From Thermoplasmata archaeon (lineage in GTDB: Archaea; Thermoplasmatota; Thermoplasmata; Lutacidiplasmatales; UBA184), in assembly GCA_049802875.1 (NCBI GenBank), contig JBARNH010000036.1, forward strand, positions 6,081-70,080: a stretch of DNA of 64,000 bases. The letters run 5' to 3'. This document shows, one piece after another, positions 4,107 through 63,697 of the stretch (position 1 is its first letter; each line of letters begins with the position of its first letter). The notes below the pieces were generated by a model, which saw nothing but the letters and a program-made list of their open reading frames with translations, searched no databases and was not told the origin of the DNA. A program made the translations under genes and the position numbers.

Positions 4107-4109
4107 GGA

Positions 4110-6505: not shown

Positions 6506-6508
6506 ACC

Positions 6509-25935: not shown

Positions 25936-25938
25936 CGT

Positions 25939-26670: not shown

Positions 26671-26768
26671 GTGTACCCTGACAACATGGTCCCAAGGTTT
26701 ATACGTGACACTGTTTCAAGGTAAGACGTTCCGACCTCTCCTAGCGAGGAACAGGCGGAGAGAGAGGC

Positions 26769-27782: not shown

Positions 27783-27786
27783 CCCC

Positions 27787-43300: not shown

Positions 43301-45315
43301 TCACGGCCGGCCTGGCGACGCCGATCTCCCCGGCCGTCGACGTCGGTCAATCCGTGACCCTGTACTCGAATCCGTCCGGCGGAACCCTGCCCTACAGCCT
43401 CCAATGGTATTCATCGACCTCGGGGACCGGGTCCTGCAACTCGGGCACCCCGCTCGGGACCGCCGCAACGCAACCACTCTCCCCCACGACGAGCGCGTAC
43501 TATTGCTACTCGGTGACGGACAGCGCCCACTCGAAGGTGACGCAACTCTCGGGGTGGAACGGGGTATTGGTAGATCCCACTCTCACCCCGCCCGCGACGC
43601 CGATCTCGAGCACCACGGCGCTCGACGCCAATCAAGCGTGGACGATCACCGGGATCATTCCGTCGACGGGGACGCCCACGTACTCCTGGCAGTGGCTGAT
43701 CTCCGTCGCGGGCGGCGCCTTCGCGAACGCGACCCAGTGCGCGACGAACAACGGCACCGGGGCCCAACGCGAGGCCCCCGAAAGCTGTACCATCGCTCCG
43801 AACACGTTGACGTCGGGGGAAAGCTATGCCCTTGAATTTCTGGTGAGGGACAATGCCACGCTTCCCGAGACCGGGACGTCCCCCGCGTCGCCGACGCTGG
43901 CGGTCTCTCCCGCACTGACAGCGCCCCCCGCGCCGATCCCCAGCGCGACGCTGCTCGATTCGGACCTGCCGTTGACGGTCACCGGAATCATCCCAATGAC
44001 CGGGACGCCCGCCTACTCCTGGCAGTGGCTGATCTCCGTTGGCGGCGGGGCCTACGTGGACGCGACGGAGTGCTCGGTGAACAGTGGCTCGGGCGCAGCG
44101 GCCGGCGCGACGGAGATCTGCAACATCACGGCCGGAACCCTGACCGCGGGCCAGACGTACGCGTTCGAGTTCCTGGTGACCGACAGCGCCTCGACGCCGG
44201 AGTCCCAACCGTCGGCGGCCTCCCCGACCGTCAGCCCGAATCCGGCCTTCTCCGCGGGCTCTGCCTCACCGGGCGCCCCCGCCATCGATTCGGGTCAATC
44301 TGTCACGTTGACCGCCAACCCCTCCGGGGGCTCGGGCGCCTACGCCTATCAGTGGTACTCGGGGAGCACGGCGAGCGGCTGTACCGGATTGGGCTCGCCG
44401 ATCAGCGGGGCGACCGCCTCGACGTTTGCCGCTTCGCCCACGACCTCGACGTACTATTGCTACGTGGTCGAGGACACGACCTCGGCCACCGCGACCTCCC
44501 TCGCAGTGCAAATCATCGTGAATCCGGCGCTCACCCCGTCCAACTCCCCGACCAGCAGTGCCACGAATGTGGCCGCCAACGAGGAGTTGACCTTGACCGC
44601 GGGGATGCCTTCCACGGGGACTCCGGACTACTCGTGGCAGTGGCTCGTCTCGGTGGACGGCGGCCCGTTCGAGGACGCCACCCAATGCGCGCTGAACACC
44701 GGATCGGGCGCGATCGCGGGCGCCACGGAGAGCTGTGCGATCGCCCCTGGGACCCTGACCGCGGGGGATACGTACGCCTTTGAGCTTCGGATCTCCGACA
44801 GTTCCGCGACCCCTGCCACTCAGACCTCGCTCGCGACCGCGACGATCACCGTCGGGGCGGCTTCGGCATCACCCCCCGCTGCCAGCTTTCCCTGGTTCTG
44901 GGTCTATGCCGCTATCACTCTCGCAGCGATCGCCGCGATCGTGGTCCTGACTCTCTTCACGTGGCGGAAGCGCCGCCGCGCTCCGCCGAGCGTCCCCCCC
45001 ACGGTCACGGGAGTCGCGGAAGAATCACCCTCGGCTGCCAGCGCGCCGGCGCGTCCGGGTCCGGTCTACCTCGAGATGCCGCCGGCCTATGCCCCCCCAG
45101 CCCCGCCGGCATCCCGTCCAACGGTGGCCGCCGAAGCCGTGGTCTCCCCACCAGCTCCTCCCCCTACTCCGACTCGAGTGCCCGAGTCCGAAGTCGATCA
45201 GGTGATGGCCGAGATCGAGAGGATCAGCACCGAGATCGCGAAGCGACCCCCCAAAAAGGGGGCCGATGGTACCACCAACGGCGGGGCCTCGTCGCCGAGC
45301 GCGGCGGACGAGTGA
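40321..45315 (+). CDS. giant (1664 aa) cell-surface protein with alternating A/B tandem repeats, C-terminal TM anchor and Pro-rich cytoplasmic tail
   Basis: Signal/TM at the N-terminus. About 7 A repeats (NPSGGTPPYSYQWYSS...GSC.SGTPLG...YYCY.VTDS...W.GVTVNP) alternate with about 7 B repeats (PSTGTP.Y.WQWL.S.NGG.Y.DA.QC...E.C.I..TLT....Y.FEL.VTD). The C-terminus reads FPWFWVYAAITLAAIAAIVVLTLFTWRKRRR followed by a Pro-rich tail. Confidence 0.85.
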   Translation: MYARCRSPTNPKIGLVRLGFLIALGVGLLASTGLVVSAASSPAPGTVRGSPPVASDLMLIAGTILPASPSIDNGQSVLLSSAVSGGTPPYTYAWYESPDGAGPCPGDGGQVGGNSSTVDTGALTSGGGPYYYCYTVTDNSSDAAGSAWDPLTVNPVLGAGAATPASPVIDYGQSVTLTANPSSGSPPYSDQWYWSSTNGGSCGSGTPLKVGSSQSTGSEITGPGTYYYCYLVTDSSVGDQGAESASSGWDGITVNSALSAPAISVAPMTIDSGQKATLSTTTSFTGGTGPYSCEWLSEAPGGNYANLGSSFGCSPGDLPTVGTGTLSPTGTWSFELQVTDSSGTPNTATSGAVTVAVASALGTPSVNPLNPSIDVGQSVAFTSDWSGGLPDYMATLNSGSSATCSADTVEVQTLSSLPGGSASFAAVSPASDIDYCIVVTDSSTGAPAASETSSVSRVVVHSALTAPAAPMPSAASLDADQSMTVGGTIPSTGTPSYAWQWLVSINGGSYKDATQCGTSASGSGASAGASETCSIPINTLTASSSYNFELQVTDGASSPESATSPASSTVTVNSAFSAGSVSPSSPSIDSGQSITLSTNPSGGTTPYSYQWYSSAKGSGACDAGTTHGTGATQVVTPSATTHYCYTASDSSHPPVMQSSSWDGVTVNPALSSGAASPGSPTIDFGQSITLSGNPASGTPPYSYQWYASDSSSGSCASGTPLGTNPTQATGTEITGPGSFYFCYVAADSSLADGGHESAPSAWDRVTVNPTLSAPSAPTVTAPALDVNQALSASGTVPSTGTAPYGWQWLMAVNGGTYADASLCAVAHGSGAPAGGTETCGIAGGALTTGDNYAFELKITDTAPTPATAVSAASSTVTVHPALTAAGAPTPSSTALDADQAMTVTGKLASTGTPNYAWQWLISINAGADVDAAQCGASASGTGAVGGATETCTIPGDTLTASTSYTFELKVTDSASTPEVTTSAASSKVTTSSALTAGLATPISPAVDVGQSVTLYSNPSGGTLPYSLQWYSSTSGTGSCNSGTPLGTAATQPLSPTTSAYYCYSVTDSAHSKVTQLSGWNGVLVDPTLTPPATPISSTTALDANQAWTITGIIPSTGTPTYSWQWLISVAGGAFANATQCATNNGTGAQREAPESCTIAPNTLTSGESYALEFLVRDNATLPETGTSPASPTLAVSPALTAPPAPIPSATLLDSDLPLTVTGIIPMTGTPAYSWQWLISVGGGAYVDATECSVNSGSGAAAGATEICNITAGTLTAGQTYAFEFLVTDSASTPESQPSAASPTVSPNPAFSAGSASPGAPAIDSGQSVTLTANPSGGSGAYAYQWYSGSTASGCTGLGSPISGATASTFAASPTTSTYYCYVVEDTTSATATSLAVQIIVNPALTPSNSPTSSATNVAANEELTLTAGMPSTGTPDYSWQWLVSVDGGPFEDATQCALNTGSGAIAGATESCAIAPGTLTAGDTYAFELRISDSSATPATQTSLATATITVGAASASPPAASFPWFWVYAAITLAAIAAIVVLTLFTWRKRRRAPPSVPPTVTGVAEESPSAASAPARPGPVYLEMPPAYAPPAPPASRPTVAAEAVVSPPAPPPTPTRVPESEVDQVMAEIERISTEIAKRPPKKGADGTTNGGASSPSAADE
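40500..44830 (+). repeat. intragenic tandem repeats (A/B pair of about 630 bp, about 7 copies)
   Basis: The periodic ~105-aa repeat pairs are visible in translation. Confidence 0.7.
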
Positions 45316-45386: not shown

Positions 45387-47462
45387 TCAGACTGCACCGG
45401 GCGGAGGCCCGCCGGCGCTCGGAGGGGGCGGTGACGAATCCCCCGGACCCTCCGACCAAGGGGAGCCGGGATTGCTGGCGGGCGGCGCGGGCGGTGTCAT
45501 CGCCGCGGGGGTCGGAACGGCCTCAACCCCTCCCTTTCGTCGCCGAGACACTAGGATGCCCACCATCAAGCCCACGATCCCCGCCACGATGATAAGGAGC
45601 AGTTCCTCGACCGTGCTCAGCGGCGACGAGCTCCCGGACGTGCTGGTGCCACCCTTCGTCGCGGGAGGGACCGCGAAGAATCCGATCCCTACGTTCTCGC
45701 CTCCCCCATGGACCGCTACCGAACCCTGCGTCGGGGTGTCGTTGTATCCACCCACGGCCGCGACGACGTAGGAGAACGTCCCGTTCGGCTCGGTGAACGT
45801 GATCGTGCCGTTGTTTGGACTGGAATGGGCGACGCCTCCAAGGGTCACCGACCACGCGGAGGTCCCGGGCAGTCCGCTCGAGGTGAACGTCACGGTGTAG
45901 GTGACTTCGGTCATCGTCAAGTTTACGGTGAGGTTTCCGTCATCGACTGACGCGACCCCCGACGCGGGGGTGACGGTGTATCCGGGGATGGCGGGGACGG
46001 TCCAAGAATAACTTCCGTTCTCGCGGTCCACCTCGACGCTCGTTCCGGTGCTCGCGTACGGCGTCGAGCCCACGAGGACCGACCAGGCGGTCGTGCCCGG
46101 GAGACCTTTCGCCTGGAACGAGATCCGATAGGTCGACGGGATGAACTCCAGGACGCGGTTGTTCCCGGTGTCGGCCACCCAGAGCGCGCCGTTCGGCCCC
46201 ACGAAGGCACCGAACGGTCCGGCGATCGCCGTGGCGTTGTCGCCAGATACATCGGCGGTCAGATTCGTCTGTCCGACGACCACCGACGCGTTCTCGAACG
46301 TGGAGAACGGCGGGAGGAATTCGACCACGCGGTTCCCCGCAAAGTCGGAGACCCACAGGTTCCCGCGCGGATCGACGGAGACGCTGACCGCAATGCCGAA
46401 CGCGCCCGCTCCCGTGGCGGTGTTGCCGGTGAACGAGGACTGGCCGAGAAGGTGGGTCGCCCCTTCCCCCGTCGAGAACGGAGCATCAAATCCGAGGACG
46501 CGATCGTTACCGGAGTCCGCGACCCACAGAATACCCCCGGAATAGTCGATGCCTTGGGGGTCGGAGAGGTTCGATGCGGAGAGCCCATATCGGCTCGTCG
46601 TAAAGTTGGATTGGCCTAGCACCAGGGAGGCGTTCATTCCGTTGGAGAACGGAGGGACGAATTCGACCACGCGGTCGTTTTCCGCGTCCACGACCCAGAG
46701 GTCACCGTGCGAGTCGAGGGTCAGGCCCACCGGGCGCGAGAGATTCTGTGCCGAAGTTCCCGACTGGTCACCGTTGAAGGTGCTCTGCCCCAACACTAGC
46801 AACGCCGCCTGGCCGTCAGTAAAGGGGGGTACAAACTCCAGGACGCGGCTGTTGTCGAAATCCGACACCCAAAGATCGCCGTGAGAGTCGAAGGTACAGG
46901 CGGCCGGAAGTCGCGTGCCCGTGGCGGTCGCATTGGGGCCTTTCGCCGTGAAGTTCGGCTGGCCAAGGACGATCGACGCCGCCTCCCCCGTGGAGAATGG
47001 CGGGGTGAACTCGGTGATCCGGTTGTCGCCCAGGCTCGGTACCCAGAGGTTGCCCCGAGAGTCGTTGCACGGGAATTCCACGTCGGGCCCGAAGGAGGTG
47101 GCATTGGCGCTCCCCGTCTGGTCGGTGGCGTTCCAGACCGTCCCATTCCATCGAGTCGTCAGATTGTTTGCACCCAGCGCGATGCTCGCGGCCATGTGGG
47201 TATAGAACGGGTTGGGAGGAGGTGAGGGGAGGGGAGCGATCGGGAGATGGAGTGCGGCAGGAGCCGCCACCGGCGGGTCTGCGGCGGCCAACGAGGGGCC
47301 GAGGGAACTGAGGAGCAGAGCGAGTACGCCGAACACGGTCCCGTACGTCATCAGCCGCGACATGGACGAATAACTTCGAACTTCTCCCTTATAATGCATC
47401 CGACGTGATTTCGGTGCCCTCGGCGCCGGTTCTCTGGGGTCGGGGGGATTTCCGGGACTCAT
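45387..47462 (-). CDS. secreted NHL-repeat beta-propeller protein with two C-terminal 'GLPxGTxWSV' domains, TM anchor and Pro-rich tail
   Basis: Signal peptide MTYGTVFGVLALLLSSLGPSLAAA. Six blades of the form LWV.D..N.RV.EF.PPFS.G..A..VLGQ.NFT. These are followed by two YTVTFTSSGLPGTSAWSV...NG.Y repeats, a TM helix and a Pro-rich C-terminus. Very many N-x-S/T sequons. Confidence 0.82.
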   Translation of the reverse strand: MSPGNPPDPREPAPRAPKSRRMHYKGEVRSYSSMSRLMTYGTVFGVLALLLSSLGPSLAAADPPVAAPAALHLPIAPLPSPPPNPFYTHMAASIALGANNLTTRWNGTVWNATDQTGSANATSFGPDVEFPCNDSRGNLWVPSLGDNRITEFTPPFSTGEAASIVLGQPNFTAKGPNATATGTRLPAACTFDSHGDLWVSDFDNSRVLEFVPPFTDGQAALLVLGQSTFNGDQSGTSAQNLSRPVGLTLDSHGDLWVVDAENDRVVEFVPPFSNGMNASLVLGQSNFTTSRYGLSASNLSDPQGIDYSGGILWVADSGNDRVLGFDAPFSTGEGATHLLGQSSFTGNTATGAGAFGIAVSVSVDPRGNLWVSDFAGNRVVEFLPPFSTFENASVVVGQTNLTADVSGDNATAIAGPFGAFVGPNGALWVADTGNNRVLEFIPSTYRISFQAKGLPGTTAWSVLVGSTPYASTGTSVEVDRENGSYSWTVPAIPGYTVTPASGVASVDDGNLTVNLTMTEVTYTVTFTSSGLPGTSAWSVTLGGVAHSSPNNGTITFTEPNGTFSYVVAAVGGYNDTPTQGSVAVHGGGENVGIGFFAVPPATKGGTSTSGSSSPLSTVEELLLIIVAGIVGLMVGILVSRRRKGGVEAVPTPAAMTPPAPPASNPGSPWSEGPGDSSPPPPSAGGPPPGAV

Positions 47463-48893: not shown

Positions 48894-49571
48894 CTATGCT
48901 TCGAGCGCCGGCGATCCCTCGGCCGGTGGGTTCGGGTCGGGGGTGACCGGACCCTGGGAGGCGACGGGCGCCCGAGGAGGTTTGGCCGAACGACTCGGCG
49001 AAGGCGCGGCCGGAGCGCTCTGGCGGCGCAACAGTCCGGCGGCCTGGAGTTCGGAAGTGATCTTCTGGACGGCCAGCGCGACGTCCGAGGGCCGGCGAGC
49101 TCCCGTGCAGACCAGTTTGCCGCTGCCAAATAGGAGCACGACCACCTTGGGCTCGTCGAGACGGCACACCAATCCCGGGAACTGCTCGGGTTCGTACTCC
49201 ACCCGGTCGAGGCCGAGCGTGATCGCGATCGAGTTGAGGTTGATCTCGCTCTCGAGATTGGAGGTCGCGACGATGTTCTGGATCTCGATCTTCGGGGGCT
49301 TCAGGTTCCGTTGACCGGTCTTACGAATGAGTTCCGATATCGTCCGAATCGATTCGTCCACCTGCTTCCAGCTCTTGCCGCCGGTACAGACGACCTTGCC
49401 CGAGTGAAAGAGCAGGATCGCCGTTTTGGGCTGCTTCAAGCGGTAGATCAGCCCCGGGAACTCCGCGGGCTCGTACTCTGCACCATCGAGCGCGAGAGCG
49501 ATCTTTTGCAGGTCAAGTTCGGCGCCGAGCGAGGTGGACGCGACTACGTTCTCAATCCGAATCCGAGTCAT
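48894..49571 (-). CDS. tbp: TATA-box binding protein
   Basis: Two TBP direct repeats (IENVVASTSLGAELDLQKIA... and IQNIVATSNLESEINLNSIA...), followed by a Pro/Ala-rich basic C-terminal tail. Confidence 0.9.
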   Translation of the reverse strand: MTRIRIENVVASTSLGAELDLQKIALALDGAEYEPAEFPGLIYRLKQPKTAILLFHSGKVVCTGGKSWKQVDESIRTISELIRKTGQRNLKPPKIEIQNIVATSNLESEINLNSIAITLGLDRVEYEPEQFPGLVCRLDEPKVVVLLFGSGKLVCTGARRPSDVALAVQKITSELQAAGLLRRQSAPAAPSPSRSAKPPRAPVASQGPVTPDPNPPAEGSPALEA

Positions 49572-52324: not shown

Positions 52325-53410
52325 TCAGGTCAGCGGAAGAGACACGGCGTTCCCATAAATCGCCAGCAGATCGCTCTGGTAGACCACGAAATACAGCTCG
52401 GTCGTGGAGTTCGCCCACGACAGATTGGGAATCACGATGGTCATCGAACCCCGGTAGGAACTCCCGCCCGGAACGAAGAAGCTCTGCAGTGCCACCGGCT
52501 GGAACGGACCCGTCAACGCCCCGGACTGGAGCATGGTCGCAAGGGAGACCGACAACTCGGTGTCGTCATACTCCATCGGGACCGAAAAGTAGTCGATCGT
52601 CCCGTTACCCAGCGGCAGCCGCGCGGCGTTGGTGTAGTTGCCGTACGTTTCGCCGAGCACCTCGCCGCCCTCGGCTTGGACGAGCCGCGTGTACATCCCG
52701 TGCGCAGGGATTCCAAATCCGTAGTTGAAATTATACGCCCGTGAGGACGGGGTCTCGTTGACGTACAACAGGGCCGATGAACCGAACAGCGAGGCGTTGA
52801 CAAACTGGGCGACGCCCGGCCACCCGGGATTCGAGGGATTCGGGTTCGACAACGGTGTGTTTGGCTGACCCGAGTAGTAGCCAATCGTGTCAGCGAACCA
52901 CACGAGGGTCCCGCCCGCGCGGATCCACGGAGCGAGAAGGTCGGTGGTCAGGTTGTACACCGTGTCCGGGATCACCCCCGTGGGCATGAACAGGATTGAA
53001 CGGGCGTCCGCTGGCTCAGTCAGGAAGCCGCGGAGCTGATTCGCGTCCAGGGTCACGATAGCCGGGGAGAGTCCCCTTGCGGTGAGCACCGCGTCGACAT
53101 GGTACGACAGACCGAACGACCACACGGGATAGGACCAGCTGGAGGGGTAGCTCGCATCGTAGTAGAAGTAGAGGTCGGCGGGCGGTGCTCCCCCGGCGGC
53201 GACCGTGGCCGTCGCGTTCACATTGGCGGGGAAGGTGGAGGTCACCCGATACGACGCCTCGTAGGTGCCGTTGGAGTTTTTGCTGAGGTCCACTGAGGCC
53301 GAGATACGTGCCTCCGCGGGCGGAGCGTAGATCAACACCTCGGCCACCACGATCGCGGCGATGAAGACGACGAGCACCACACGAAAGAACTGAACCAACG
53401 GTCGAGTCAT
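52325..53410 (-). CDS. N-terminally membrane-anchored extracytoplasmic protein (module B partner; paralog of 28900..30072)
   Basis: The Met at 53410 forms an ATGA overlap with the upstream gene's stop. TM anchor. Motifs IYAPP, YFYYDASY, VTLDANQL, LLAPWIRAGGTLVWF, IGYYS, NTPLS. At least 12 sequons. Confidence 0.6.
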   Translation of the reverse strand: MTRPLVQFFRVVLVVFIAAIVVAEVLIYAPPAEARISASVDLSKNSNGTYEASYRVTSTFPANVNATATVAAGGAPPADLYFYYDASYPSSWSYPVWSFGLSYHVDAVLTARGLSPAIVTLDANQLRGFLTEPADARSILFMPTGVIPDTVYNLTTDLLAPWIRAGGTLVWFADTIGYYSGQPNTPLSNPNPSNPGWPGVAQFVNASLFGSSALLYVNETPSSRAYNFNYGFGIPAHGMYTRLVQAEGGEVLGETYGNYTNAARLPLGNGTIDYFSVPMEYDDTELSVSLATMLQSGALTGPFQPVALQSFFVPGGSSYRGSMTIVIPNLSWANSTTELYFVVYQSDLLAIYGNAVSLPLT

Positions 53411-54870
53411 ACCGGAACTCCCCTCAGCCGAAGGCCCGAGAGCCGGACCCCGACCCACGCACTGACGACGAGGATGACCGCAACTGGAATCACAAAGAAG
53501 GGTCGCAGGAGGGGGGACCAAACGGCCCAAGTGAAAAGGCTATTCCGCACCACGCCGAGTCCCAACAGATGGGTGTTGAACGCCAAGGGCTCAAAGAAGA
53601 AGAGGGGGCTGGTCACACCGAACAGGTAGTACAGCGTCGCCCCGGCGGTCAAGGTGACGTAGGAAAGTCCGGACCAAAGCGTGTACCGGACATAGACCGC
53701 CAGGGCGAGCACGACCCATGGCAGAACCCAGAGCAGGTACTGTGATTGGACGAACGGCACGAGTAGATACGCCGCACAGAGCGAGAGAAGGAGTGTGCCG
53801 TCCCAGTACGCCAGAAAACCGGGACCCGAGATGCGGGGAGCCCGAGCCGTCCGGATCGCGATGAAGATAAGCGCCAGGGCTGCCACCACGACCATCGCCA
53901 CTACGACGAGCGTCGCATTCGCGCCGAGCGTGACGGCCACTCCGTTCAGACTACCGATCGAGAGCACCGACCACTGATTGAAGCCGCCGAAGGGCTCGTT
54001 TCCACGACTGGTGCCGACGAAGAAGAACGTCAACCAGTTCGTGAGGCTGCCCGGCGGCCAGAACACGAGTGCCATCATTCCCCCGAGACCGAGGGCGAAC
54101 AGTCCCAGCGGTTTGGCGAGGGTTCCGCCGGACGACCGAGAAGTGTCCCAGGTCAGCAGGAGGAAGACCGGTACAAGGACCAGTGTGAACACCCCAATGA
54201 CCGCGCCGAGGCCCAAGGAAATGCCGGAGAAGAGGAAATCCCGCTTGGTCGCGAGGTAGTACGCGAGGAGGGCGAGGAACGCGGTGATCCCGTCGAACGT
54301 CCCGTGGATCGCGGAGACGGTGATGACCAGCGGATTGAGCATCCAGAGCGCGATCCCGGCCGTGGCCGCCCGCGGGTCCGGAATCCGCTCGCGAATCATC
54401 ACGTAGAGCAGGACACCCAGGAGGACATCAAAAACGAAATAGATCGACTTCAGCACGAGGTCGAAGGCGACGGTCGGATAGAACGTTGGTTCGTACGAGG
54501 CAAAGGGGAGAACGACAAGGCTGTTCAAACCGGGCGGGACGGTTAGAATGTTCGCCGGAGCCGAGAACAGGGAGAATGCTCTCCCCAAGAGCCCAAGAAG
54601 GTAGAGCCATCCGGGCGGATAGTTGGTGAGATACGCGTACGGCCCCTGGCCGTACGCCATGCTGAGCGCGGAGGCCGCGAACCCGGCAGTATCCCCCTCG
54701 GCGGAATAAACCGCGACGGCGTATCGGATGAAAAGTCCAATCACAATAATCCAAACCGCCGTTTGGTGATCCCGAACCACGGACGCCGCGCGGGCGATTC
54801 CAGCGCCAACCCTCGCCCTTATGGCCGACCCGAGCGCAATTCTCGGGGGGCTCGGAACTCCGGAGCTCAT
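53407..54870 (-). CDS. polytopic GT-C-like membrane protein (module B; paralog of 30069..31622)
   Basis: About 12 TM helices. Shares YGQGPY..YPP, NPLVI..S..HG and GAVIGVF motifs with the module-A membrane protein. Confidence 0.62.
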   Translation of the reverse strand: MSSGVPSPPRIALGSAIRARVGAGIARAASVVRDHQTAVWIIVIGLFIRYAVAVYSAEGDTAGFAASALSMAYGQGPYAYLTNYPPGWLYLLGLLGRAFSLFSAPANILTVPPGLNSLVVLPFASYEPTFYPTVAFDLVLKSIYFVFDVLLGVLLYVMIRERIPDPRAATAGIALWMLNPLVITVSAIHGTFDGITAFLALLAYYLATKRDFLFSGISLGLGAVIGVFTLVLVPVFLLLTWDTSRSSGGTLAKPLGLFALGLGGMMALVFWPPGSLTNWLTFFFVGTSRGNEPFGGFNQWSVLSIGSLNGVAVTLGANATLVVVAMVVVAALALIFIAIRTARAPRISGPGFLAYWDGTLLLSLCAAYLLVPFVQSQYLLWVLPWVVLALAVYVRYTLWSGLSYVTLTAGATLYYLFGVTSPLFFFEPLAFNTHLLGLGVVRNSLFTWAVWSPLLRPFFVIPVAVILVVSAWVGVRLSGLRLRGVPV

Positions 54871-55328: not shown

Positions 55329-56666
55329 GTGCAGATCGATTTTGAAACACGAAGAGAACTTCGATCTGTGACGGTGGTGCTGACCGCGGCTATTCTGTTG
55401 ACCCTCGTCCTTTCGATGGTGCCGACCACTGCCGCCAGTCCCTCGGTGGTTGCCAGCGAATTGCCCATGTCCTCGGCGCTGGCAGTGGGGCCGGTGTCAG
55501 CGGCGCCTACGACGGGACTCCAGACCGAAATTGATCTCGCCCCTCCCGGGGCGACGGTCGTCATTCCCGCCGGAACGTACGTCGGCCAACTCCGTATCGA
55601 CAAGGATGTTGAACTCGTGGGCGCTGGGGAGGGGAAGACCATTCTGCAGTCTCCGGCCACCATGAACCCGGACTTCCTCGGAAATGTCTTCGTGGTGGAG
55701 GTCGGGGAGCACTCCACCGTCCAAATCTCGGAACTCACCGTGAGGGTGACCGAAGAGTGCATGCTCGCGAACGGTATCGGCGTCGCCACAGGGGGCGGGA
55801 TCGGTGTTCACGGGGATGCCACGATCAAGATATGGGACGTGGGTGTCGTGGCCTTCGGCCCCGCTCCGGACCTCGACCAGACGTGCATGACGGATGGAAC
55901 CGCCGGGATGCTTTCGTTCGGACGCGCCGTCAGCATCGGACTCGACGATCCTGCGGGCATCGGGACTCCGTTCGAGGTCGAGGGTCATGGCTGGGTCGAG
56001 CATGTCACGGTCCAGGGCTTCGACATCTTCTCCATCTCGGTGGGTGGGGTGCGCGGACCCAGTGGGAGCACCGCCACGATCATCGACAACGTGGTGCGAG
56101 TAGGGCCCGGTCCCTATACCGCGGCCTACGGGATCGTCGCCTATGGGGTATCGGTCATCTCGGACAATCTCGTGGTCGGCCAGGCAGGGTCCGATGGGGG
56201 AATCGCCGTCGTCTTCACGTCGGCGATTGTGACGAACAACGTCATCAAGAACTTCATCTGCACCAGCGCACCCTTCCCGATCACCCCCCCGTGTGGGGTC
56301 GACCCATTCTTTGACGACCAGGACCTGGGGATCTTCCTCGCGAGCATCACTCCGGGGACCGCGGTGACGCACAACACGATCCGCGACGTCGACGCGGGGA
56401 TCCTCGTCGACGGGCCGGGAGCTCCCGCGCTCATCCAGCACAACACCATCACGAACAGTACGTACTACGGGCTCGACCTGATCAACGCGAACCAGACCTT
56501 CCGCGACAACGACGTAGGGGGCGGGCTGTACGCGATCGCGGTCGGCGCCGAGAACGACAACACCACGGCCATTCTCGCGCACGACTCCCTGCACGGTTAT
56601 TCGGAGGCGCTGGCCCTCCTGGAAGCGAACTCCCCGTGGGTCGCCAAAGCCCTCGTAAGACCCTAG
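55329..56666 (+). CDS. secreted right-handed parallel beta-helix (PbH1/NosD-like) protein
   Basis: Signal peptide. N-terminal IDLAPPGATVVIPAGTYVGQLRIDKDVELVGAGEGKTIL is typical of NosD-like beta-helix proteins. Repeated Gly/Val/Ile-rich about 22-aa turns with NN.I..N.. motifs. Confidence 0.65.
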   Translation: MQIDFETRRELRSVTVVLTAAILLTLVLSMVPTTAASPSVVASELPMSSALAVGPVSAAPTTGLQTEIDLAPPGATVVIPAGTYVGQLRIDKDVELVGAGEGKTILQSPATMNPDFLGNVFVVEVGEHSTVQISELTVRVTEECMLANGIGVATGGGIGVHGDATIKIWDVGVVAFGPAPDLDQTCMTDGTAGMLSFGRAVSIGLDDPAGIGTPFEVEGHGWVEHVTVQGFDIFSISVGGVRGPSGSTATIIDNVVRVGPGPYTAAYGIVAYGVSVISDNLVVGQAGSDGGIAVVFTSAIVTNNVIKNFICTSAPFPITPPCGVDPFFDDQDLGIFLASITPGTAVTHNTIRDVDAGILVDGPGAPALIQHNTITNSTYYGLDLINANQTFRDNDVGGGLYAIAVGAENDNTTAILAHDSLHGYSEALALLEANSPWVAKALVRP

Positions 56667-57266
56667 TCGCTCGGTAGTGGGCCGCGGAGCCGCGGGGACC
56701 GCCGTCGATCGAGACCGGTCAGCGCTGAGAGGGTTTGGTAACACAACTGTAGCCTGTTGGAGGCCGCTGCCGCGGAGCGCTGGGCGTCTCTCCGTGGCCG
56801 GCCTTCGCTCGAATTCGCCGTCGCTCTATCGGGGGTCGAACGAATCGGGTGAATCGCCGCGCACTCTCGGCGAAATGCTACGTACAATTGTTGCAATCTG
56901 TACTAGGGAAGGGATCGCTCTTCGCGATGACATGCCCTTTCCGGAAGGACTGCCTCGGGGGGGGGTGGCGTGCCGATGTGAGCATTGCCCGTCAGTGAAG
57001 CAGCGCTCGCTCAGTTCCACGTCGAGGGGGTGGTGTCTGTAAGTTTAAAATGATACGGAAATAGTAACATTGCTGTATGTGTGACATGTTGGACGGGCGT
57101 GGACGCCCGGTCTCTCTCCCGAACGGAAGTGAAGGTCATCCTATCGCTCGAGGCCGATCATCGGGAAGTCATCTCGCTCGCAGGGTCGAGTCCGGCTCAA
57201 GAGTGCACGAATCGCCACCCCGCGGGTTAAGTACATCCTCTTCGTTCCCCCCAATCGGCGGTCCCA

Positions 57267-59864
57267 TTGGCAACTCCGACCAATCCATCCGCGGCCTCGT
57301 ACCCTGCGCCGATGAATCCGCCTCCACCGTCCGTTCCTCCGCCGACGCCTCCCCCGCCCCGAAAGGGAATGTCCAGCGGCTTGAAAGTGGCCATCATCGC
57401 GGTCGTGGTGGTCATCATCGTGGTCATCGGGCTGGGCTTCTCGGGGCTGATCCCTGGGTTCAAGCTGGGCGGGTCGAGCTCGACCAGCCCGAGCGCCGCG
57501 CAGTACGTGGTCACCTTCTCCGAGACCGGACTGCCGTCGGGCACCTCTTGGTCCATCACGTTCGCGGGCTCTACGGAGTCTGCGGCGACGTCCACGATCA
57601 CGTTCTCGGAGAAGAACGGTACGTATTCTTTCACGGTCGGAGCCGTGACCGGGTTCGCGGCCACCCCAACCTCCGGTAGCCTCACCGTCAATGGGGCGGC
57701 GTTGAACCAAGGAATCACGTTCGCCAGCGGCTACAGCGTCACCTTCACCGAGTCGGGGCTGCCGTCCGGAACCATGTGGTCGGTCACCCTCAGCGGCTCG
57801 ACTCTCTCATCGACCTCGGAGTCCATCGCCTTCACCGAAGCGAACGGCATGTATTCCTACACGATCCCGTCTGCCACGGGGTACACGGCCAGTCCCGCGT
57901 CGGGAACCGTGACGGTGAGCAGCGCACCCCAGTCCGTGACCGTCACGTTTACGTCCATTCCTCCGGGCGAGTACGTGGTCACCTTCACGGAGAGCGGACT
58001 CCCGACCAGCACCAGCTGGTCGGTCACCCTGCAAGGGAGCTTGCAATCCTCGACGACCAGCGCCATCACGTTCGACGAGATGAATGGGTCCTATCCCTAC
58101 ACGGTGGGCACGGTGAGCGGGTACACCGCGACCCCATCGAGCGGTAACGTGCCCGTCTCCGGAGGGCCAGCGTTCGTCACGATCACATTCACCACCTCCA
58201 CTTCTGGGCTGGGCGGGCCCCAGTACGCGGTGACCTTCGATCAGACCGGGTTGCCGGCGGACGAGCTGTGGAGCGCCGGTGCCGCTCCGGTGTCGAACTT
58301 CCTGCTGGAGTACGGAGCGGCGAGCGTAGGGCCGAGTATCGAGTTCTCGGCACCGGACGGCGCCTACTACTGGTCCACGGGTACGAATGCGTACGGCCCG
58401 AACGGAAACCCCTACGTTACGGAACCCTCGGGCGGAGAGTTTAACGTGACCGGGTCCCCCGTGACAATCCCGTTCGCATTCCTTCCCACGTACTCGGTCA
58501 ACTTCACTGAGACCGGCCTCCCCATGGACGCCAGTTGGAACGTGACGCTGAACGGGACGACCACTTGCTATGCTACTGGTCCCGAAAACTGCACATCGGA
58601 CGCCACGTGGACGAACGGTACCCTCCCGTTCGTGGTCGCCGCGTTCGGCTACACCCCATCCCCGGAGTCGGGGTCGGTCACCGTCTCCGGTGCCAATGTC
58701 TCCACGCCAATCTCGTTCACCTCCCTCACATTGTACTCGGTGGAGTTTACCGAGTCCGGTCTGGCTTCCGGAACGGACTGGTCCGTCTATCTCAATGGAA
58801 CGCTTGGGTTCGGCACCGCGCCGGGGAACATCGTGCTCACCGGTTTCCCGAATGGCATCTACCCGTTCGATGACGTGACCACGAACGGCTACTATTCGGC
58901 GAGTCCGAGTTCCGGCAGCGTCACTGTCGCTTCGGCGCCCGGCAGCCAGGCCATTGTGTTCACGGCGCTTTCCACCTACACCGTGACGTTCAGCGAAAGC
59001 GGCCTTGCATCAAGCACCGGTTGGGAGGTCTACCTCAACTTGAGCTACGGATCCGCTTCCGCCCCGACGACGATACCGCTGTCGGCTCCGGTCGGTAACA
59101 ACACGTGGACCGCATACGCCTCGGGGTACTACGACCAGTACGGGTACGTGATCGTAACGACCGGGGCGAACCCGGTGACCGTCACGTTCACGGCCCTGCC
59201 TACCCCCCCGCTCACGTACATCGTGACGTTCAACGAAACCGGCCTTCCGTCGTCATACGACTACTGGTCGGTGTACATGGTCAACAATGGGCTCGATACC
59301 ACGTGCAGCGATTCCAATGCGGCGGGCGCTAACATCAGTTGCTTTGTGCCCGACGGATACTATTCCTGGGTGGCCACCGCCGACTTTTCACCGAACTACA
59401 CTGCAAGTCCCACGTCCGGCTATGTGACCGTGACCGGGGCCACGATCATCGTGAACGTCACGTACGTGAACACGACCGCCCTGGACGAGTACCTGGCGGC
59501 ATTCGTCGAGTGGTCGTACTGGTACTTTGGTGAGGGTGGGATCCCCAACGGATCGAGCTGGAGCGTTACGCTCGGGGGAGTCACCCAGAGTTCGCAAGGG
59601 ATGTTCATTTACTTCCTTGAACCGAACGGTACCACACAAGCCTACACCATCACACCGCCCGCAGGGTATGTGGTAGTGCCGAGCTCCGGGAACATTACTG
59701 GCTACACGCAGACTTACCAGGGCTCCTACGAGATCTGGTACTACCCGACCGTAGTCGTGGTGTTCGCCGCGGACCCCCCGTTGGAGCTTTCGGGGAACTC
59801 TATTGCGACTTCCCTATCCAACGCCCCCCATGTCTTCGCGATAGCGGCGACACGCGACTCCTGA
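57267..59864 (+). CDS. type-II-anchored surface protein: Pro-rich cytoplasmic N-tail, TM, about 12 tandem ~70-aa 'GLPxGTxWSV' repeats
   Basis: The N-terminus is Pro-rich (MATPTNPSAASYPAPMNPPPPSVPPPTPPPP) followed by a TM helix (VAIIAVVVVIIVVIGLGF). The repeats read Y.VTFTE.GLP.GT.WSVTL.G...S....I.F.E.NG.Y.Y.V....GY.A.P.SG.V.V. There are about 20 N-x-S/T sequons. The track's first codon is non-ATG. The ATG at codon 16 is an alternative start. Confidence 0.8.
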   Translation: MATPTNPSAASYPAPMNPPPPSVPPPTPPPPRKGMSSGLKVAIIAVVVVIIVVIGLGFSGLIPGFKLGGSSSTSPSAAQYVVTFSETGLPSGTSWSITFAGSTESAATSTITFSEKNGTYSFTVGAVTGFAATPTSGSLTVNGAALNQGITFASGYSVTFTESGLPSGTMWSVTLSGSTLSSTSESIAFTEANGMYSYTIPSATGYTASPASGTVTVSSAPQSVTVTFTSIPPGEYVVTFTESGLPTSTSWSVTLQGSLQSSTTSAITFDEMNGSYPYTVGTVSGYTATPSSGNVPVSGGPAFVTITFTTSTSGLGGPQYAVTFDQTGLPADELWSAGAAPVSNFLLEYGAASVGPSIEFSAPDGAYYWSTGTNAYGPNGNPYVTEPSGGEFNVTGSPVTIPFAFLPTYSVNFTETGLPMDASWNVTLNGTTTCYATGPENCTSDATWTNGTLPFVVAAFGYTPSPESGSVTVSGANVSTPISFTSLTLYSVEFTESGLASGTDWSVYLNGTLGFGTAPGNIVLTGFPNGIYPFDDVTTNGYYSASPSSGSVTVASAPGSQAIVFTALSTYTVTFSESGLASSTGWEVYLNLSYGSASAPTTIPLSAPVGNNTWTAYASGYYDQYGYVIVTTGANPVTVTFTALPTPPLTYIVTFNETGLPSSYDYWSVYMVNNGLDTTCSDSNAAGANISCFVPDGYYSWVATADFSPNYTASPTSGYVTVTGATIIVNVTYVNTTALDEYLAAFVEWSYWYFGEGGIPNGSSWSVTLGGVTQSSQGMFIYFLEPNGTTQAYTITPPAGYVVVPSSGNITGYTQTYQGSYEIWYYPTVVVVFAADPPLELSGNSIATSLSNAPHVFAIAATRDS

Positions 59865-60046
59865 GACCAACAACGCCCGGCGGCCGACGATGGTTCCCGT
59901 AACCGGTCCTCCGTCGGCCAACTTTCCGGATTCGGGCAGACGGTGAAACAGCTTCGTTTCTAGGTCCGGGTGGGGCCCCACGTCGCGCGGCCCGGCACCC
60001 GGCGGGTTAAGTACACCCTCTTCGTTCCCCCGAACCGGCGGTCCCG

Positions 60047-62659
60047 TTGGCAGCTCCGAGCAATCCATCCGCGGCCTCGTACCCTCCGCCGATGAATCAG
60101 CCTCCCCCACCGGCCCCACCGCCGTCCCCTCCCCCGAAGCGAAAGGGACTGTCGAAGGGAGTGCTCGTGGCGATTGCCGCCGTCGTCGTGGTCGTCATCG
60201 TGGTTCTCGGACTGGGTTTCTCTGGGCTGATCCCCGGGTTCAAGTTGGGCGGGTCGAGCTCAGGCGGCGCGAGCGGCCCATCGTACGTGATCACGTTCAC
60301 CGAAACCGGACTACCGTCGGGGACGACCTGGTCGATCACCCTCGCCGGTAGCGTGGCCTCGTCGGCCACGCCCACCATCACGTTCTCGGAGAAGAACGGT
60401 AGCTATTCATACTCCGTCGGGTCCGTACCAGGGTTCGCCGCGAACCCAACGTCGGGGACGGTGGGCGTCAACGGGCTGGCAGTGAACGAGGCCATCACGT
60501 TCCAGGCCGGATACGCCGTCACCTTCACCGAATTCACGCTACCCTCAGGCACAATGTGGTCGGCCACCCTGAACGGGTCGACTCTCTCCTCGACGTCGGG
60601 CTCCATTGCGTTCACCATCCCGAACGGGGTGTATGCCTACTCGATCCCGACGGTGTCCGGGTATACGGCAAGTCCCGCGTCGGGATCGGTCACAGTGAGC
60701 GGCGTCGCCCAATCGGTGCCGATCACCTTCACTCCGGTTCCCGCGGGAGAGTATGCGGTCACGTTCACCGAGAGCGGTCTTCCCGGCGGCACGAGCTGGT
60801 CGGTCACCCTCGGGGGAACCCTCCAGTCCTCGACGACCACCACCATCACTTTCAACGAGAACAACAACACCTATCCTTACACCGTAGGCGCGGTCAGCGG
60901 CTACACCGCGGCCCCATCGAGCGGGAACGTCGTCGTCTCCGGCGGGCCGGCGTCCGTTACGATCACGTTCACCACCTCCTCCAACCCGTTGGCCGGGCCG
61001 CAGTACGCGGTGACATTCGACCAGTCCGGGTTGGCTGCGGACGAGCTCTGGAGCACCTACGCCTCGGTCAAGACAGATTTGTTCTTGTACTACGGGGCGA
61101 CGAGCGCAGGAGCCAGCATGGAGTACTCGGCCCCGGACGGCACGTACTACTGGTCCGTCTCCACGGACGCAATGGGCGCGAACGGCAACCCGTACCAGCC
61201 GGACCCGGCCGGAGGGACGTTTACGGTGTCCGGCGGCCCGGTGACAATCCCGGTCGCCTTCCTGCCGACGTACTCGGTCAACTTCACCGAGACCGGTCTG
61301 ACTCCGGGAGCCCCCTGGAATGTGACATTGAATGGGACAACCATTTGCTATGGCACGGCTCCCACGAATTGCACAACGGATACCACGTGGACGAACGGTA
61401 CCCTTTCGTTCGTGGTCGCCGCCCTTGGCTACACCGCCTCCCCGGCGACGGGGATGATCACCGTATCGGGCGGTAACGTCTCTCAGGCGATCTCGTTCAC
61501 TTCCGTGTCCACGTACATGGTGACGTTCACCGAGACGGGCCTGGCTTCCGGAGTGTATTGGTACGTCACCTTGGACGGTGTGCCTGGTTATGGCAACGCG
61601 CCATCGACCATCGTGTTCCCCGACTTCCCGATCGGAGACTTCCCGTTCTATGACGTGTCCTCGGCCGGCTACTATTCGGCGAGCCCGACATCCGGCAGCG
61701 TGACCGTCACCTCGGGCGGCGGAAGCCAGGCGATCGTATTCACGGCGATCACTCTCTACCCAGTGACCTTCACCGAGCACGGGCTGACGTCGGGCAGCCC
61801 GTGGACCGTCGAGCTCAACGAGAGCGAAGGAAATGCGGCCGCGCCGACGCCGATTTCTGTGTCGGCCCCCGCCGGAAACAACAGTTACGTCGCCTACTCC
61901 ACGGGGTACATCACTCAATCTGGGTACGAGATCGTAACGACAGGGACGAACGCGGTGTCCGTCACTTTCTCCCTTCCGCCGCCCCCACCTACCCTGTATA
62001 ACGTGACGTTCAACGAAACCGGCCTTCCGATGACCGGTGGTTGGGGGATCGAGCTGCAGAATAATGGGGCGTATATCTCGCTGTACACTACATGCTCGAA
62101 TTCCTCGGGGGCCGGCACCAATCTCAGTTGCTACGTGCCGGACGGCAATTATTCATGGTCGGCTTCCACGCTGTACACACCCAATTACACCGCATCCCCG
62201 ACGGCGGGCTATCTGACCGTTGACGGCGCGGGCACGATCGTCATCGTTTCGTTCGTCAACACAACGGCATCGGGCCAGTACTTAGTGGCGTTCGCCGAGG
62301 ATGCCTACTCGGAATTCGGTATCGGCGGGACACCCAACGGATCGACGTGGAGCGTGACGCTCGGGGGAGTGACCCATACTTCGCAGGGGATGTACATCGC
62401 CTTCCTCGCGACGAACGGCTCCACCGAAGCGTATACGATCACCCCGCCCGCGGGATACGTGGTGGTACCGAGTTCGGGAAGCATCACCGGCTACACCTCA
62501 TGGTACCAGGGCGACCTATCCGTGGAAGCGTACGCCTTTGTGAGCGTGGTGTTCGCGGCTACGGACCCCCCGCTCGAGGTCCCGGCGAGCGAAATTGCGA
62601 GCAGCCTCTCGGGCGCTCCCCACGGGTTTGCAATGGCCCCGCCCCGGGACGAGTCCTAG
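60047..62659 (+). CDS. paralogous type-II-anchored repeat surface protein (tandem duplicate of 57267..59864)
   Basis: Same architecture and collinear sequence (about 70% identity by eye). The N-terminus MAAPSNPSAASYPPPMNQPPPP matches the first copy, and the upstream 50 bp is also conserved. Confidence 0.8.
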   Translation: MAAPSNPSAASYPPPMNQPPPPAPPPSPPPKRKGLSKGVLVAIAAVVVVVIVVLGLGFSGLIPGFKLGGSSSGGASGPSYVITFTETGLPSGTTWSITLAGSVASSATPTITFSEKNGSYSYSVGSVPGFAANPTSGTVGVNGLAVNEAITFQAGYAVTFTEFTLPSGTMWSATLNGSTLSSTSGSIAFTIPNGVYAYSIPTVSGYTASPASGSVTVSGVAQSVPITFTPVPAGEYAVTFTESGLPGGTSWSVTLGGTLQSSTTTTITFNENNNTYPYTVGAVSGYTAAPSSGNVVVSGGPASVTITFTTSSNPLAGPQYAVTFDQSGLAADELWSTYASVKTDLFLYYGATSAGASMEYSAPDGTYYWSVSTDAMGANGNPYQPDPAGGTFTVSGGPVTIPVAFLPTYSVNFTETGLTPGAPWNVTLNGTTICYGTAPTNCTTDTTWTNGTLSFVVAALGYTASPATGMITVSGGNVSQAISFTSVSTYMVTFTETGLASGVYWYVTLDGVPGYGNAPSTIVFPDFPIGDFPFYDVSSAGYYSASPTSGSVTVTSGGGSQAIVFTAITLYPVTFTEHGLTSGSPWTVELNESEGNAAAPTPISVSAPAGNNSYVAYSTGYITQSGYEIVTTGTNAVSVTFSLPPPPPTLYNVTFNETGLPMTGGWGIELQNNGAYISLYTTCSNSSGAGTNLSCYVPDGNYSWSASTLYTPNYTASPTAGYLTVDGAGTIVIVSFVNTTASGQYLVAFAEDAYSEFGIGGTPNGSTWSVTLGGVTHTSQGMYIAFLATNGSTEAYTITPPAGYVVVPSSGSITGYTSWYQGDLSVEAYAFVSVVFAATDPPLEVPASEIASSLSGAPHGFAMAPPRDES

Positions 62660-62880: not shown

Positions 62881-63180
62881 ATGAGCGAAATCGAGCCCGT
62901 CCTCGACGTGGTCGCCCTCGTTCTGGCGATTCTTTTGGCGCTGATCGGGTTCGCCGCCGCCGCTCGGTACCGGGACCGGCGGTTCGCGTTCGTCGGAGTC
63001 GCCCTCACGGTTCTCGGGCTCGTCAGCGGGGTCGGTCTCGCGAATGTGCTCTGGTCCGGCGTGATCCCCGGCGGCCATCTGGGCCCCACGCTCGCTGGCC
63101 TGCTCATCGTATCCGAGGCCCTGTTGTACCTCTCGTTCGTCGCTTCCCGGCCGTGGACGCCGCGCACCTCGGGCCCGTAG
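62881..63180 (+). CDS. hypothetical small membrane protein (3 TM)
   Basis: 99 aa, hydrophobic. Its stop is 1 nt before the downstream regulator's start, suggesting an operon. Confidence 0.4.
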   Translation: MSEIEPVLDVVALVLAILLALIGFAAAARYRDRRFAFVGVALTVLGLVSGVGLANVLWSGVIPGGHLGPTLAGLLIVSEALLYLSFVASRPWTPRTSGP

Positions 63181-63181
63181 C

Positions 63182-63697
63182 GTGCTGGACCTCCCTGCCC
63201 GCCGTCGGATCTTCGATTTCGTCCGCGAGCACCCCGGGTCGAGCGCCCGCACAATCCAACGCGGGCTCGGGTTGGGGTGGGGTGAGACCGCGTACCATCT
63301 GGACCAGATGCTGCGGGGAGGTCTACTCTGCCGAGAGCGCGGGGGCCGTCGGGACTACTACTTCCCGCGCGAGATGCTGCCGCTCGACCGTCAGCTGCTC
63401 GTTGCGATGCAGAGCGTCGCCGAGCGAGCGATCCTGGTCGAGCTCGCCCGGTTCCCGGGGCTGACGTTTCGTGAGCTGGTGGACCGGTTGGCGGTCGGGA
63501 AGTCGACGATGGCCTTCCACCTCAAGTTCCTCGTGGCGCTCGGACTCGTCGAGGTCGACTCTTCGGGACCCACCCGACGGTACCGGGCCCACCGCCCGGA
63601 GCTGATCCTCCGACTCTACGGCACCTACCGAGACTCCTTCGAAGCGCGGTGGATCGACCGGTTCGCCTCGACGTGGGGTGGCCTGACCCGAAAGTAA
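63182..63697 (+). CDS. winged-helix transcriptional regulator (two wHTH modules, ArsR/TrmB-like)
   Basis: The HTH-like segment SSARTIQRGLGLGWGETAYHLDQMLRGGLL and a second wHTH, LTFRELVDRLAVGKSTMAFHLKFLVALGLVEV, are present. GTG start. Confidence 0.6.
   Translation: MLDLPARRRIFDFVREHPGSSARTIQRGLGLGWGETAYHLDQMLRGGLLCRERGGRRDYYFPREMLPLDRQLLVAMQSVAERAILVELARFPGLTFRELVDRLAVGKSTMAFHLKFLVALGLVEVDSSGPTRRYRAHRPELILRLYGTYRDSFEARWIDRFASTWGGLTRK

Follow-up and report, generated by a model that had tools for sequence, protein, structure and literature searches.

Most Thermoplasmatales lack surface layers (S-layers), and genome searches in these archaea yield no S-layer genes; cultured species without S-layers are instead covered by an exterior layer of glycoproteins that is dense, unordered and about 20 nm thick, and whose constituents have yet to be identified (PMC12448462). 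A review of archaeal cell surfaces contains nothing on Thermoplasma coats (PMC6098224). Here, we analysed two tandem paralogous genes (A and B) located in a stretch of 64,000 nucleotides, hereafter the window, of contig JBARNH010000036.1 from a Thermoplasmata metagenome-assembled genome (MAG; GCA_049802875.1). We consider it rather probable that A and B encode membrane-anchored, stalk-only proteins of a non-crystalline glycoprotein coat. Each would be a single-pass type II protein with a Pro-rich N-terminal tail in the cytoplasm and the rest outside, the ectodomain being a chain of nine prealbumin/CnaB-like β-sandwich domains.

Architecture, topology and sequons of the tandem proteins

The window is archaeal (it includes a TBP gene at 48894-49571) and has a GC content of 62-69% in 2-kb windows. 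The two open reading frames (ORFs) lie on the same strand, exactly where a preliminary description of this DNA had placed them, and encode proteins of 865 and 870 amino acids (aa; Table 1). They correspond to NCBI locus tags WA547_06470 and WA547_06475, both annotated as 'hypothetical protein', as is the NCBI entry for the product of B (MGC2789684.1). The Pro-rich N-terminal tail and single transmembrane (TM) helix of the preliminary description are borne out by hydrophobicity (KD19 of 3.2-3.3 for this segment in A and B) and by the AlphaFold helix at residues 37-59 of A; its estimate of about 12 copies of a ~70-aa repeat has to be revised, since a hidden Markov model (HMM) of the repeat delineates nine units of 76-98 aa in each protein (76-96 aa in A).

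The full-length AlphaFold model of A has a mean predicted local distance difference test score (pLDDT) of 81 and a predicted TM-score (pTM) of 0.54, the latter leaving inter-domain geometry unfixed. From the N-terminus onwards, it presents a disordered tail (residues 1-36), the helix, a disordered Ser-rich linker, nine β domains (80-835) and a disordered C-terminus (839-865). Each unit is modelled as a β-sandwich of six to eight strands, mostly seven or eight, with pLDDT mostly between 80 and 95.

The TM segment is a probable signal-anchor with the N-terminus inside and the C-terminus outside. The type II topology predicted for both proteins is well supported because basic residues flank the TM segment on its N-terminal side, the Pro-rich tail and a [RK]KG motif being kept across orthologs, and because the sequons, the Cys pairs and the scarcity of basic residues all lie past it. 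Lys K116 is the only basic residue in the ectodomain of A, and the ectodomain Lys of B are K116 and K342; Lys and Arg together amount to 0.7-0.9% of A and B, versus 9-13% of the cytoplasmic proteins of the window. Both proteins have an isoelectric point (pI) of 4.05 and a Ser plus Thr content of 27-28%. Two Cys pairs of A, C434/C442 in unit R5 (58566-58592) and C680/C692 in unit R8 (59304-59342), have equivalents in B and probably form disulfides in these otherwise Cys-free proteins.

The C-terminal tail is confined to the A/B orthogroup. Its Arg863 is invariant in 25 orthologs, two or three residues from the C-terminal end. We rejected the tail as a TM anchor or as an archaeosortase signal: its hydrophobicity is low (a KD17 of about 1.0, where the TM segment near the N-terminus reaches 3.2; pLDDT 24-27) and it matches none of the NCBIfam CTERM sorting models. 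In particular, the tripartite C-terminal signal of archaeosortase/exosortase substrates (PGF-CTERM, PEF-CTERM, VPXXXP-CTERM) is absent, the tail having one Arg and no basic cluster. Unlike A and B, other members of the repeat family end in a TM segment followed by RRRK, and the A/B tail may be a relic of such an anchor or an unrecognised signal.

A and B each contain exactly 20 N-x-S/T sequons, in line with the approximate count first given, versus 9.5-10.3 ± 2.6 in composition shuffles. All are located within residues 117-809 (window positions 57615-59693 in A and 60395-62416 in B), but unevenly spread: the three units nearest the membrane have only 2-3 of them, and units R4-R9 have 17-18. 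In most of the 25 orthologs, sequons are about twice as frequent as in shuffles (z 2.0-8.5); at 18 alignment columns, half or more of these orthologs have a sequon, and A and B share 16 of their 20 positions. Many sequons fall at one of two hot spots of the unit, 'LNG[ST]' and the turn 'PNG[ST]Y'. Sequon density reaches 2.3-2.9 per 100 aa in A, B and a third repeat-bearing protein of the window, which carries an NHL propeller. The enrichment is therefore specific to repeat-bearing proteins and not a by-product of composition, since the 1664-aa Ig-like/PKD-like-rich protein encoded nearby is equally Ser/Thr-rich at a far lower density (Table 1). Extracytoplasmic, enriched and positionally conserved sequons are what is expected of N-glycosylated archaeal surface proteins, and A and B are probably N-glycosylated. 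The sequence evidence thus supports the earlier picture of extracellular proteins that are anchored in the membrane, probably carry N-glycans and consist of a reusable surface module.

The repeat unit, its fold and its family

The unit consensus reads YxVTFTExGLPxGTxWSVTLxG...IxFxxPNGTYxYxV...GYxxxPxxGxVTVxG...TF, with W16 and G58 invariant. The array is old, because the units of A are only 39-57% identical to each other and TRF finds no tandem repeat in the DNA, the repeats being visible at the protein level only. Scanning the window ORFs with the repeat HMM revealed no copies outside A, B and the NHL protein.

The repeat corresponds to no curated named domain, a match to which would have counted against the preliminary description: Pfam and NCBIfam scans retrieve no family matching it. 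The only Pfam family to exceed its whole-protein cut-off, DUF1214 (PF06742), scores 36.2 bits in A (cut-off 25) and 15 bits in B, with no stretch passing alone; the best stretch in A covers 28 residues (model positions 21-47 of 112). We rejected DUF1214 membership, as this score sums many weak matches to YxVTFxExGLP with no domain-level match. Searching PDB sequences with the repeat proteins gave no matches, and the best hit of the repeat profile against them is a SpaA-like domain (E 0.1). When 71 single units were compared with Pfam, five matched CarboxypepD_reg (best E 0.0024), two SpaA and two SdrD_B, all below the gathering score. The sub-threshold sequence signals are thus solely to SpaA, CarboxypepD_reg, SdrD_B and PEGA, which we take to belong to one Pfam clan.

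Structure prediction bears out the β-sandwich that had been expected: the AlphaFold model of one unit, built from a 71-sequence alignment, is an all-β, eight-strand sandwich (pLDDT 89). A Foldseek search of the PDB with this unit retrieves the B domains of the staphylococcal adhesins UafA and SdrD, CnaB2, streptococcal ancillary pilins, Bacillus anthracis TIE and the transthyretin-like domain of carboxypeptidases D and N (all with TM-scores of 0.6-0.75 and E>0.01). With the full chain, it retrieves pilins, TIE, the GhpA neck, SdrD, macroglobulin domains and, weakly, SlaB; because the root-mean-square deviations (RMSDs) are large, we read this similarity as a generic beads-on-a-string resemblance. 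The modelled unit is therefore superposable on the β-sandwich of prealbumin/transthyretin-like stalk domains (SpaA PF17802, SdrD_B PF17210, CarboxypepD_reg PF13620, CnaB), without any sequence match to them above the Pfam gathering score. The fold matches and the sub-threshold signals together point to a divergent, uncurated sequence family with a prealbumin/transthyretin-like fold. CnaB-type domains contain an intramolecular Lys-Asn/Asp isopeptide bond; the repeat consensus has no conserved Lys and the ectodomains have one or two, so that such Lys-dependent bonds are impossible here.

A profile search of 1.84 billion representative proteins identified the repeat in 8,321 of them at E<=1e-3 and in 6,544 at E<=1e-10, the longest arrays reaching 44 units per protein; a word-indexed search returned more than 2,000 matches. 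The GTDB species genomes contain at least 558 confirmed loci; the carriers are, with few exceptions, Thermoplasmata/Thermoplasmatota MAGs, several with more than one locus, and the isolate names of many carriers suggest soil, peat or acidic habitats. All the repeat-family members that we checked are annotated as 'hypothetical'. These numbers, together with the NHL protein, substantiate the view of the repeat as a reusable surface module.

In relatives, the array is fused to heads such as YVTN/NHL propellers, thermopsin, a sedolisin pro-domain, phospholipase C, β-helix and ice-binding-like domains. Among the best 120 homologs, 37 have the order (signal)-head-array-TM, in which the array links the head to a TM segment at the C-terminus, another 37 consist of an array followed by a TM segment (REP-TM or TM-REP-TM) and 29 show the TM-array order of A and B; the array nearly always adjoins the membrane anchor. 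Because of this position, often below a head, the array probably works as a membrane-proximal stalk, which would hold thermopsin, sedolisin-type pro-domain, YVTN/NHL propeller, phospholipase C and β-helix heads off the membrane. The A/B orthogroup is well conserved (43-72% identity); its proteins measure about 820-890 aa, usually contain nine units and have no head, and A and B are thus head-less, stalk-only members of the family.

The NHL protein fits the head-stalk-TM order of the family and is a mirror arrangement of A and B. It consists of an N-terminal hydrophobic signal, the NHL propeller, two repeat units, a Ser/Thr linker, a TM segment followed by RRRK and a Pro-rich tail, and it contains 20 sequons where 7.1 are expected. 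The repeat had been reported to occur twice at its C-terminus; there are indeed two copies, at residues 445-600 of 691, followed by the linker, the TM segment and the tail rather than at the extreme end. Pro-rich, predicted cytoplasmic tails accompany both types of anchor, being N-terminal in A and B and C-terminal in the NHL protein and others (e.g. P0005). A cytoplasmic partner common to the tails of A, B and the NHL protein is conceivable.

Sequence evolution and gene neighbourhood of the pair

A and B are 67% identical over the full length of the proteins and 72% at the DNA level, with a synonymous divergence (dS) of 0.76 and a dN/dS of 0.32. With both ORFs intact and this dN/dS ratio, both genes are under purifying selection. 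Comparison of their 5' regions (57216-57371 and 59996-60151) reveals homogenisation: identity reaches 90% in the upstream block and 84% over the first 35 codons (pS 0.22), versus 72% (pS 0.48) for the whole genes. This suggests either gene conversion or a constraint on the regulatory/N-tail region.

The related locus L001 carries a single copy of the repeat gene, whose product P0002 (L001 10001-12481) is 72% identical to A and 69% to B, both values exceeding the identity of A and B to each other. P0002 is nearer to B in units R1-R3 (72-89% versus 59-75%) and nearer to A in units R6-R9 (68-82% versus 55-67%). Given these identities and this mosaic similarity, we rejected a plain history of duplication after speciation; the duplication may predate the split from L001, or the mosaic may result from asymmetric divergence or from recombination between the copies. 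The repeat protein evolves faster than its surroundings, since the L001 neighbours are 82-88% identical to window proteins and the repeat protein only 72%. Within the orthogroup, the unit count varies by one: P0012 and P0050 have one more unit after R2, and P0050 and P0099 lack R7.

The start of gene A differs between annotations, which predict proteins of 865 aa (TTG at 57267), 850 aa (NCBI, ATG at M16, 57312) or 831 aa (Logan, ATG at M35, 57369); the JGI start for the L001 ortholog is a still later ATG. We favour the longest form, from the TTG, because this codon and the Pro-rich tail are conserved in A, B and L001, in the latter case upstream of the called start. The upstream blocks of A and B are identical at 46 of 51 nucleotides (nt) and contain a TATA-like GGGTTAAGTAC box about 40 nt ahead of the TTG; in A, the Shine-Dalgarno-like GGCGGT lies 4 nt ahead of this start. 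The single-copy ortholog in L001 is likewise preceded by the block, with the same box and TTG, and the block may act as a promoter. The proposal that the duplication included the promoter region holds for these 51 nt with their TTAAGTA box; the next 131 nt upstream show no similarity above chance (77 matches versus 78.7 ± 2.8 in shuffled sequences). The shared block is suggestive of expression of both copies, which had been called probable, an overstatement. Scans for sigma-70 promoters and intrinsic terminators gave nothing useful, these models being not applicable to archaea.

Table 1. Features of the window discussed in the text.
Feature	Position	Strand	Details
Paralog A	57267..59864	+	ORF, 865 aa, TTG start, GC3 0.81
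A, Pro-rich N-terminal tail (residues 1-36)	57267..57374	+	Ends R32-K33; disordered, predicted cytoplasmic, pLDDT 31-42
A, single TM helix (residues 37-59)	57375..57443	+	AlphaFold helix, KD19 3.18
A, units R1-R9 (residues 80-835)	57504..59771	+	HMM, nine domains, independent E-values (i-E) 7e-30 to 6e-06
A, unit starts R1-R9	57504, 57732, 57972, 58224, 58491, 58734, 58977, 59217, 59484	+	Unit alignment
A, C-terminal tail (residues 836-865)	59772..59861	+	DPP, about 22 weakly hydrophobic residues, Arg863 plus 2 residues
Paralog B	60047..62659	+	ORF, 870 aa, TTG start; architecture as in A
B, Pro-rich N-terminal tail	60047-60157	+	Predicted cytoplasmic
B, TM segment (about residues 38-62)	60158-60232	+	
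B, nine units	60284-62566	+	HMM
B, C-terminal tail	62567-62656	+	
Upstream block of A	57216..57266	+	TTAAGTA 57227-57233, GGCGGT 57257-57262
Upstream block of B	59996..60046	+	TTAAGTA 60007-60013, GGCGGT 60037-60042
NHL β-propeller surface protein	45387..47462	-	691 aa; Pfam NHL 2.6e-24
NHL protein, repeat units (residues 445-600)	45663..46130	-	HMM, i-E 2.2e-15 and 3e-22
NHL protein, C-terminal TM segment (residues 621-642)	45537..45602	-	RRRK follows
NHL protein, Pro-rich tail	45387-45536	-	Predicted cytoplasmic; after TM segment and RRRK
Ig-like/PKD-like-rich protein	40321-45315	+	1664 aa, pI 4.05, Ser+Thr 28%, 6 sequons (0.36/100 aa)
Right-handed β-helix/NosD-like protein	55329-56666	+	Secreted; directly upstream of A
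99-aa ORF and HVO_0163-type helix-turn-helix (HTH) regulator	62881-63697	+	After gene B in every close relative
Glycan-biosynthesis cluster	~15713-36325		GHMP kinase, two nucleotidyltransferases, three GT2, FkbM methyltransferase
dTDP-rhamnose genes RmlA, B-like, C, D	25054-28377		In glycan cluster
GDP-mannose 4,6-dehydratase	33130-34107		In glycan cluster
Multi-TM GT-C glycosyltransferase	30069-31622	-	In glycan cluster; weak GT87 and weak PIG-U matches
Multi-TM GT-C glycosyltransferase	53407-54870	-	Weak GT87 match; 2.4 kb upstream of A; syntenic in close relatives

The order GT-C gene, β-helix gene, repeat gene, 99-aa gene and HVO_0163-type HTH gene is conserved in close relatives only. The β-helix gene is syntenic in L001 and in the Logan contigs and is found near the ortholog in L007; in L001, three other genes are inserted upstream of the single repeat gene. 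We rejected a conserved operon with glycosyltransferases, as the neighbours are common only to L001 and the Logan contigs, plus the β-helix gene in L007. Past the end of the window, the Logan contigs carry genes for a 474-aa protein and for a thermopsin-like protein of about 1125 aa (L077 12369-14496 region). At the other end of the window, a 2-oxoacid dehydrogenase operon (1957-8609, + strand) encodes an E1 component, a transketolase-like E1 beta, E2, a second E1, E3 and then a lipoate-protein ligase; it is unrelated to A and B. Neither the Rfam scan nor the tRNA scan of the window gave a hit. The two GT-C enzymes of Table 1 may transfer sugars at the external side of the membrane.

Function of the pair and comparison with described systems

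In the coat model that we favour, A and B would project from the membrane as elongated, acid-stable rods carrying N-glycans mainly on their six distal domains and, with similar proteins, would form a non-crystalline coat that fills the role of the S-layer in other archaea. By analogy with the imaged Thermoplasmatales, chains of the A/B type are plausible constituents of such an exterior layer. The membrane cover of wall-less, S-layer-less Thermoplasmata being unidentified at the protein level (PMC12448462), A and B would be concrete candidates for it. A bolder version, which we regard as tentative and rather unlikely, holds that the unordered exterior protein layer taking the place of an S-layer in Thermoplasmata is built mainly from the head-less orthogroup, with the distal glycan-bearing domains acting as a barrier and the Pro-rich tail coupling to a cytoplasmic partner. 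If it were true, the uncurated repeat would be a defining envelope module of the class Thermoplasmata, and the interest of A and B would grow accordingly should they prove to be the main constituent of this layer.

Several points weigh against the coat model. The topology and signal-anchor assignments come from hydrophobicity and charge rules only, and the N-terminal segment could be cleaved. The rod shape is deduced from the fold class, with the geometry between domains left loose by the model. A head-less stalk has no obvious molecular activity, which makes 'coat' a default reading, and the source is an uncultured soil lineage, distinct from the imaged Thermoplasmatales species. Finally, no AglB/STT3 was found among the window ORFs scanned. 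That A and B are served by adjacent glycosylation genes, as had been described, is not supported either: the glycan cluster is at least 21 kb from gene A, and only one GT87-like GT-C is encoded nearby.

Alternatively, A and B could be adhesins, whose distal units R8-R9 and/or Arg-terminated tail would bind soil particles, polymers or partner cells, the paralogs having diverged in specificity. The nearest structural analogues are indeed the stalks of Gram-positive adhesins and pilins, the halves in which A and B differ most from the single-copy ortholog are complementary, and the repeat protein changes faster than the proteins encoded around it (identity to L001 of 72%, versus 82-88% for the latter). 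However, A and B lack a separate head that could bind a ligand, their distal units are typical copies of the repeat, no unit stands out by its conservation, and the dN/dS ratio gives no sign of overall positive selection, so that we consider an adhesin function unlikely.

The preliminary description proposed S-layer-like or major envelope proteins, and A and/or B could be true S-layer proteins whose paracrystalline lattice forms the cell wall. With many S-layer glycoproteins of archaea they share a membrane anchor, abundant sequons, an acidic composition and a high Ser/Thr content, their orthogroup is kept across many Thermoplasmata MAGs, and there is a weak structural match to Sulfolobus SlaB (8qox_B, E 2e-5). 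This match is one of many to generic β-sandwich chains, with an RMSD of about 20 Å, and no archaeal S-layer family was recovered: the Pfam and NCBIfam scans (E<=1) contain no S_layer_N/C, TIGR01564/01567 or halobacterial S-layer glycoprotein. The stalk domains of this family serve elsewhere as spacers and not as lattice formers, and most Thermoplasmatales have neither S-layers nor S-layer genes (PMC12448462). A true S-layer thus seems quite improbable. We also rejected a relationship with the S-layer protein proposed for Micrarchaeota (bioRxiv 10.1101/2021.04.28.441871), despite one homolog from a Micrarchaeaceae MAG, since that protein has PF05123-type domains.

In A, B and most orthologs, the [RK]KG located just ahead of the hydrophobic stretch raises the question of a class III (type IV pilin-like) signal, cut by a prepilin peptidase after [RK]-K-G, with the helix then driving assembly into a fibre or bindosome-like structure. 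The motif resembles the [KR]-G context in which archaeal prepilin peptidases cut; it equally fits the positive-inside rule. Furthermore, in contrast to known class III signals, the hydrophobic core begins only after 5-8 polar or charged residues past the G (LSKGV in B; K at +3), the 33-residue Pro-rich leader is atypically long and no pilus-assembly genes are present among the window ORFs scanned, which makes such a signal very doubtful.

That the tandem pair could be an assembly artefact, or one copy a decaying pseudogene, has nothing specific in its favour beyond the generic risk of repeats in MAGs and is refuted by the divergence of the copies at 28% of their nucleotides, by two intact ORFs with their low dN/dS, and by the recurrence of the pair in three Logan assemblies, each made independently from a run of its own (SRR28041785, SRR28061557 and SRR27973877), where the product of A (P0001) is identical, and in two NCBI MAGs, that of the window and a second one. 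Since the pair occurs in independent assemblies, the collapse or expansion that would have undermined the preliminary description is excluded and the tandem duplication is real.

The kind of protein described here, a tandem β-sandwich surface glycoprotein, is familiar; the domain family is undescribed and very large. The repeat family, newly defined here, comprises 8,321 representative clusters and is covered by neither a Pfam nor an NCBIfam model; we assign to it a predicted fold and a putative stalk role. A curated model of the repeat domain could annotate thousands of archaeal surface proteins.

Gram-positive stalks (SdrD B, UafA B, CnaB2, BcpA, RrgB, PitA) resemble A and B in forming a surface stalk from tandem β-sandwiches of about 80-110 residues. 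They match one unit with TM-scores of 0.6-0.75, give multi-domain matches to the full chain and are weakly matched, below threshold, by the C-terminal 'PNGxYxY...GY...P..G.VTV' half of the repeat (SpaA, SdrD_B, CarboxypepD_reg). In contrast, there is no significant sequence relation (the best per-unit match, with an E of 0.0024, falls below all gathering cut-offs), and the N-terminal half motif YxVTFTExGLPxGTxWSV is specific to the archaeal repeat family. A and B would be anchored by an N-terminal TM helix and not linked by LPXTG/sortase to peptidoglycan, cannot form isopeptide bonds with one or two Lys in their ectodomains, and are heavily decorated with sequons.

SlaB has a C-terminal TM segment, a coiled coil and a lattice-forming partner, SlaA. 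Like A and B as predicted here, it is a single-pass anchored, glycosylated β-sandwich chain, from an acidophilic archaeon (8qox_B; Foldseek E 2.3e-5, 14% identity); A and B differ in having no SlaA-like partner, coiled coil or evidence of a lattice. There are also archaeal surface proteins in which propeller or β-helix heads are joined to tandem small β-sandwiches (2002, Structure 10:1453; cited as ref. 67 in PMC10354927). The same types of heads are fused to the repeat in relatives of A and B and in the NHL protein; the spacer is PKD in the former and the prealbumin-like repeat here, and A and B are head-less. Finally, the exterior protein layer of Cuniculiplasma and Oxyplasma was imaged in cultured species, whereas A and B are known from genes of an uncultured soil lineage; anchored, glycosylated multi-domain stalks such as those predicted here would nevertheless be the type of molecule expected in that layer (PMC12448462).

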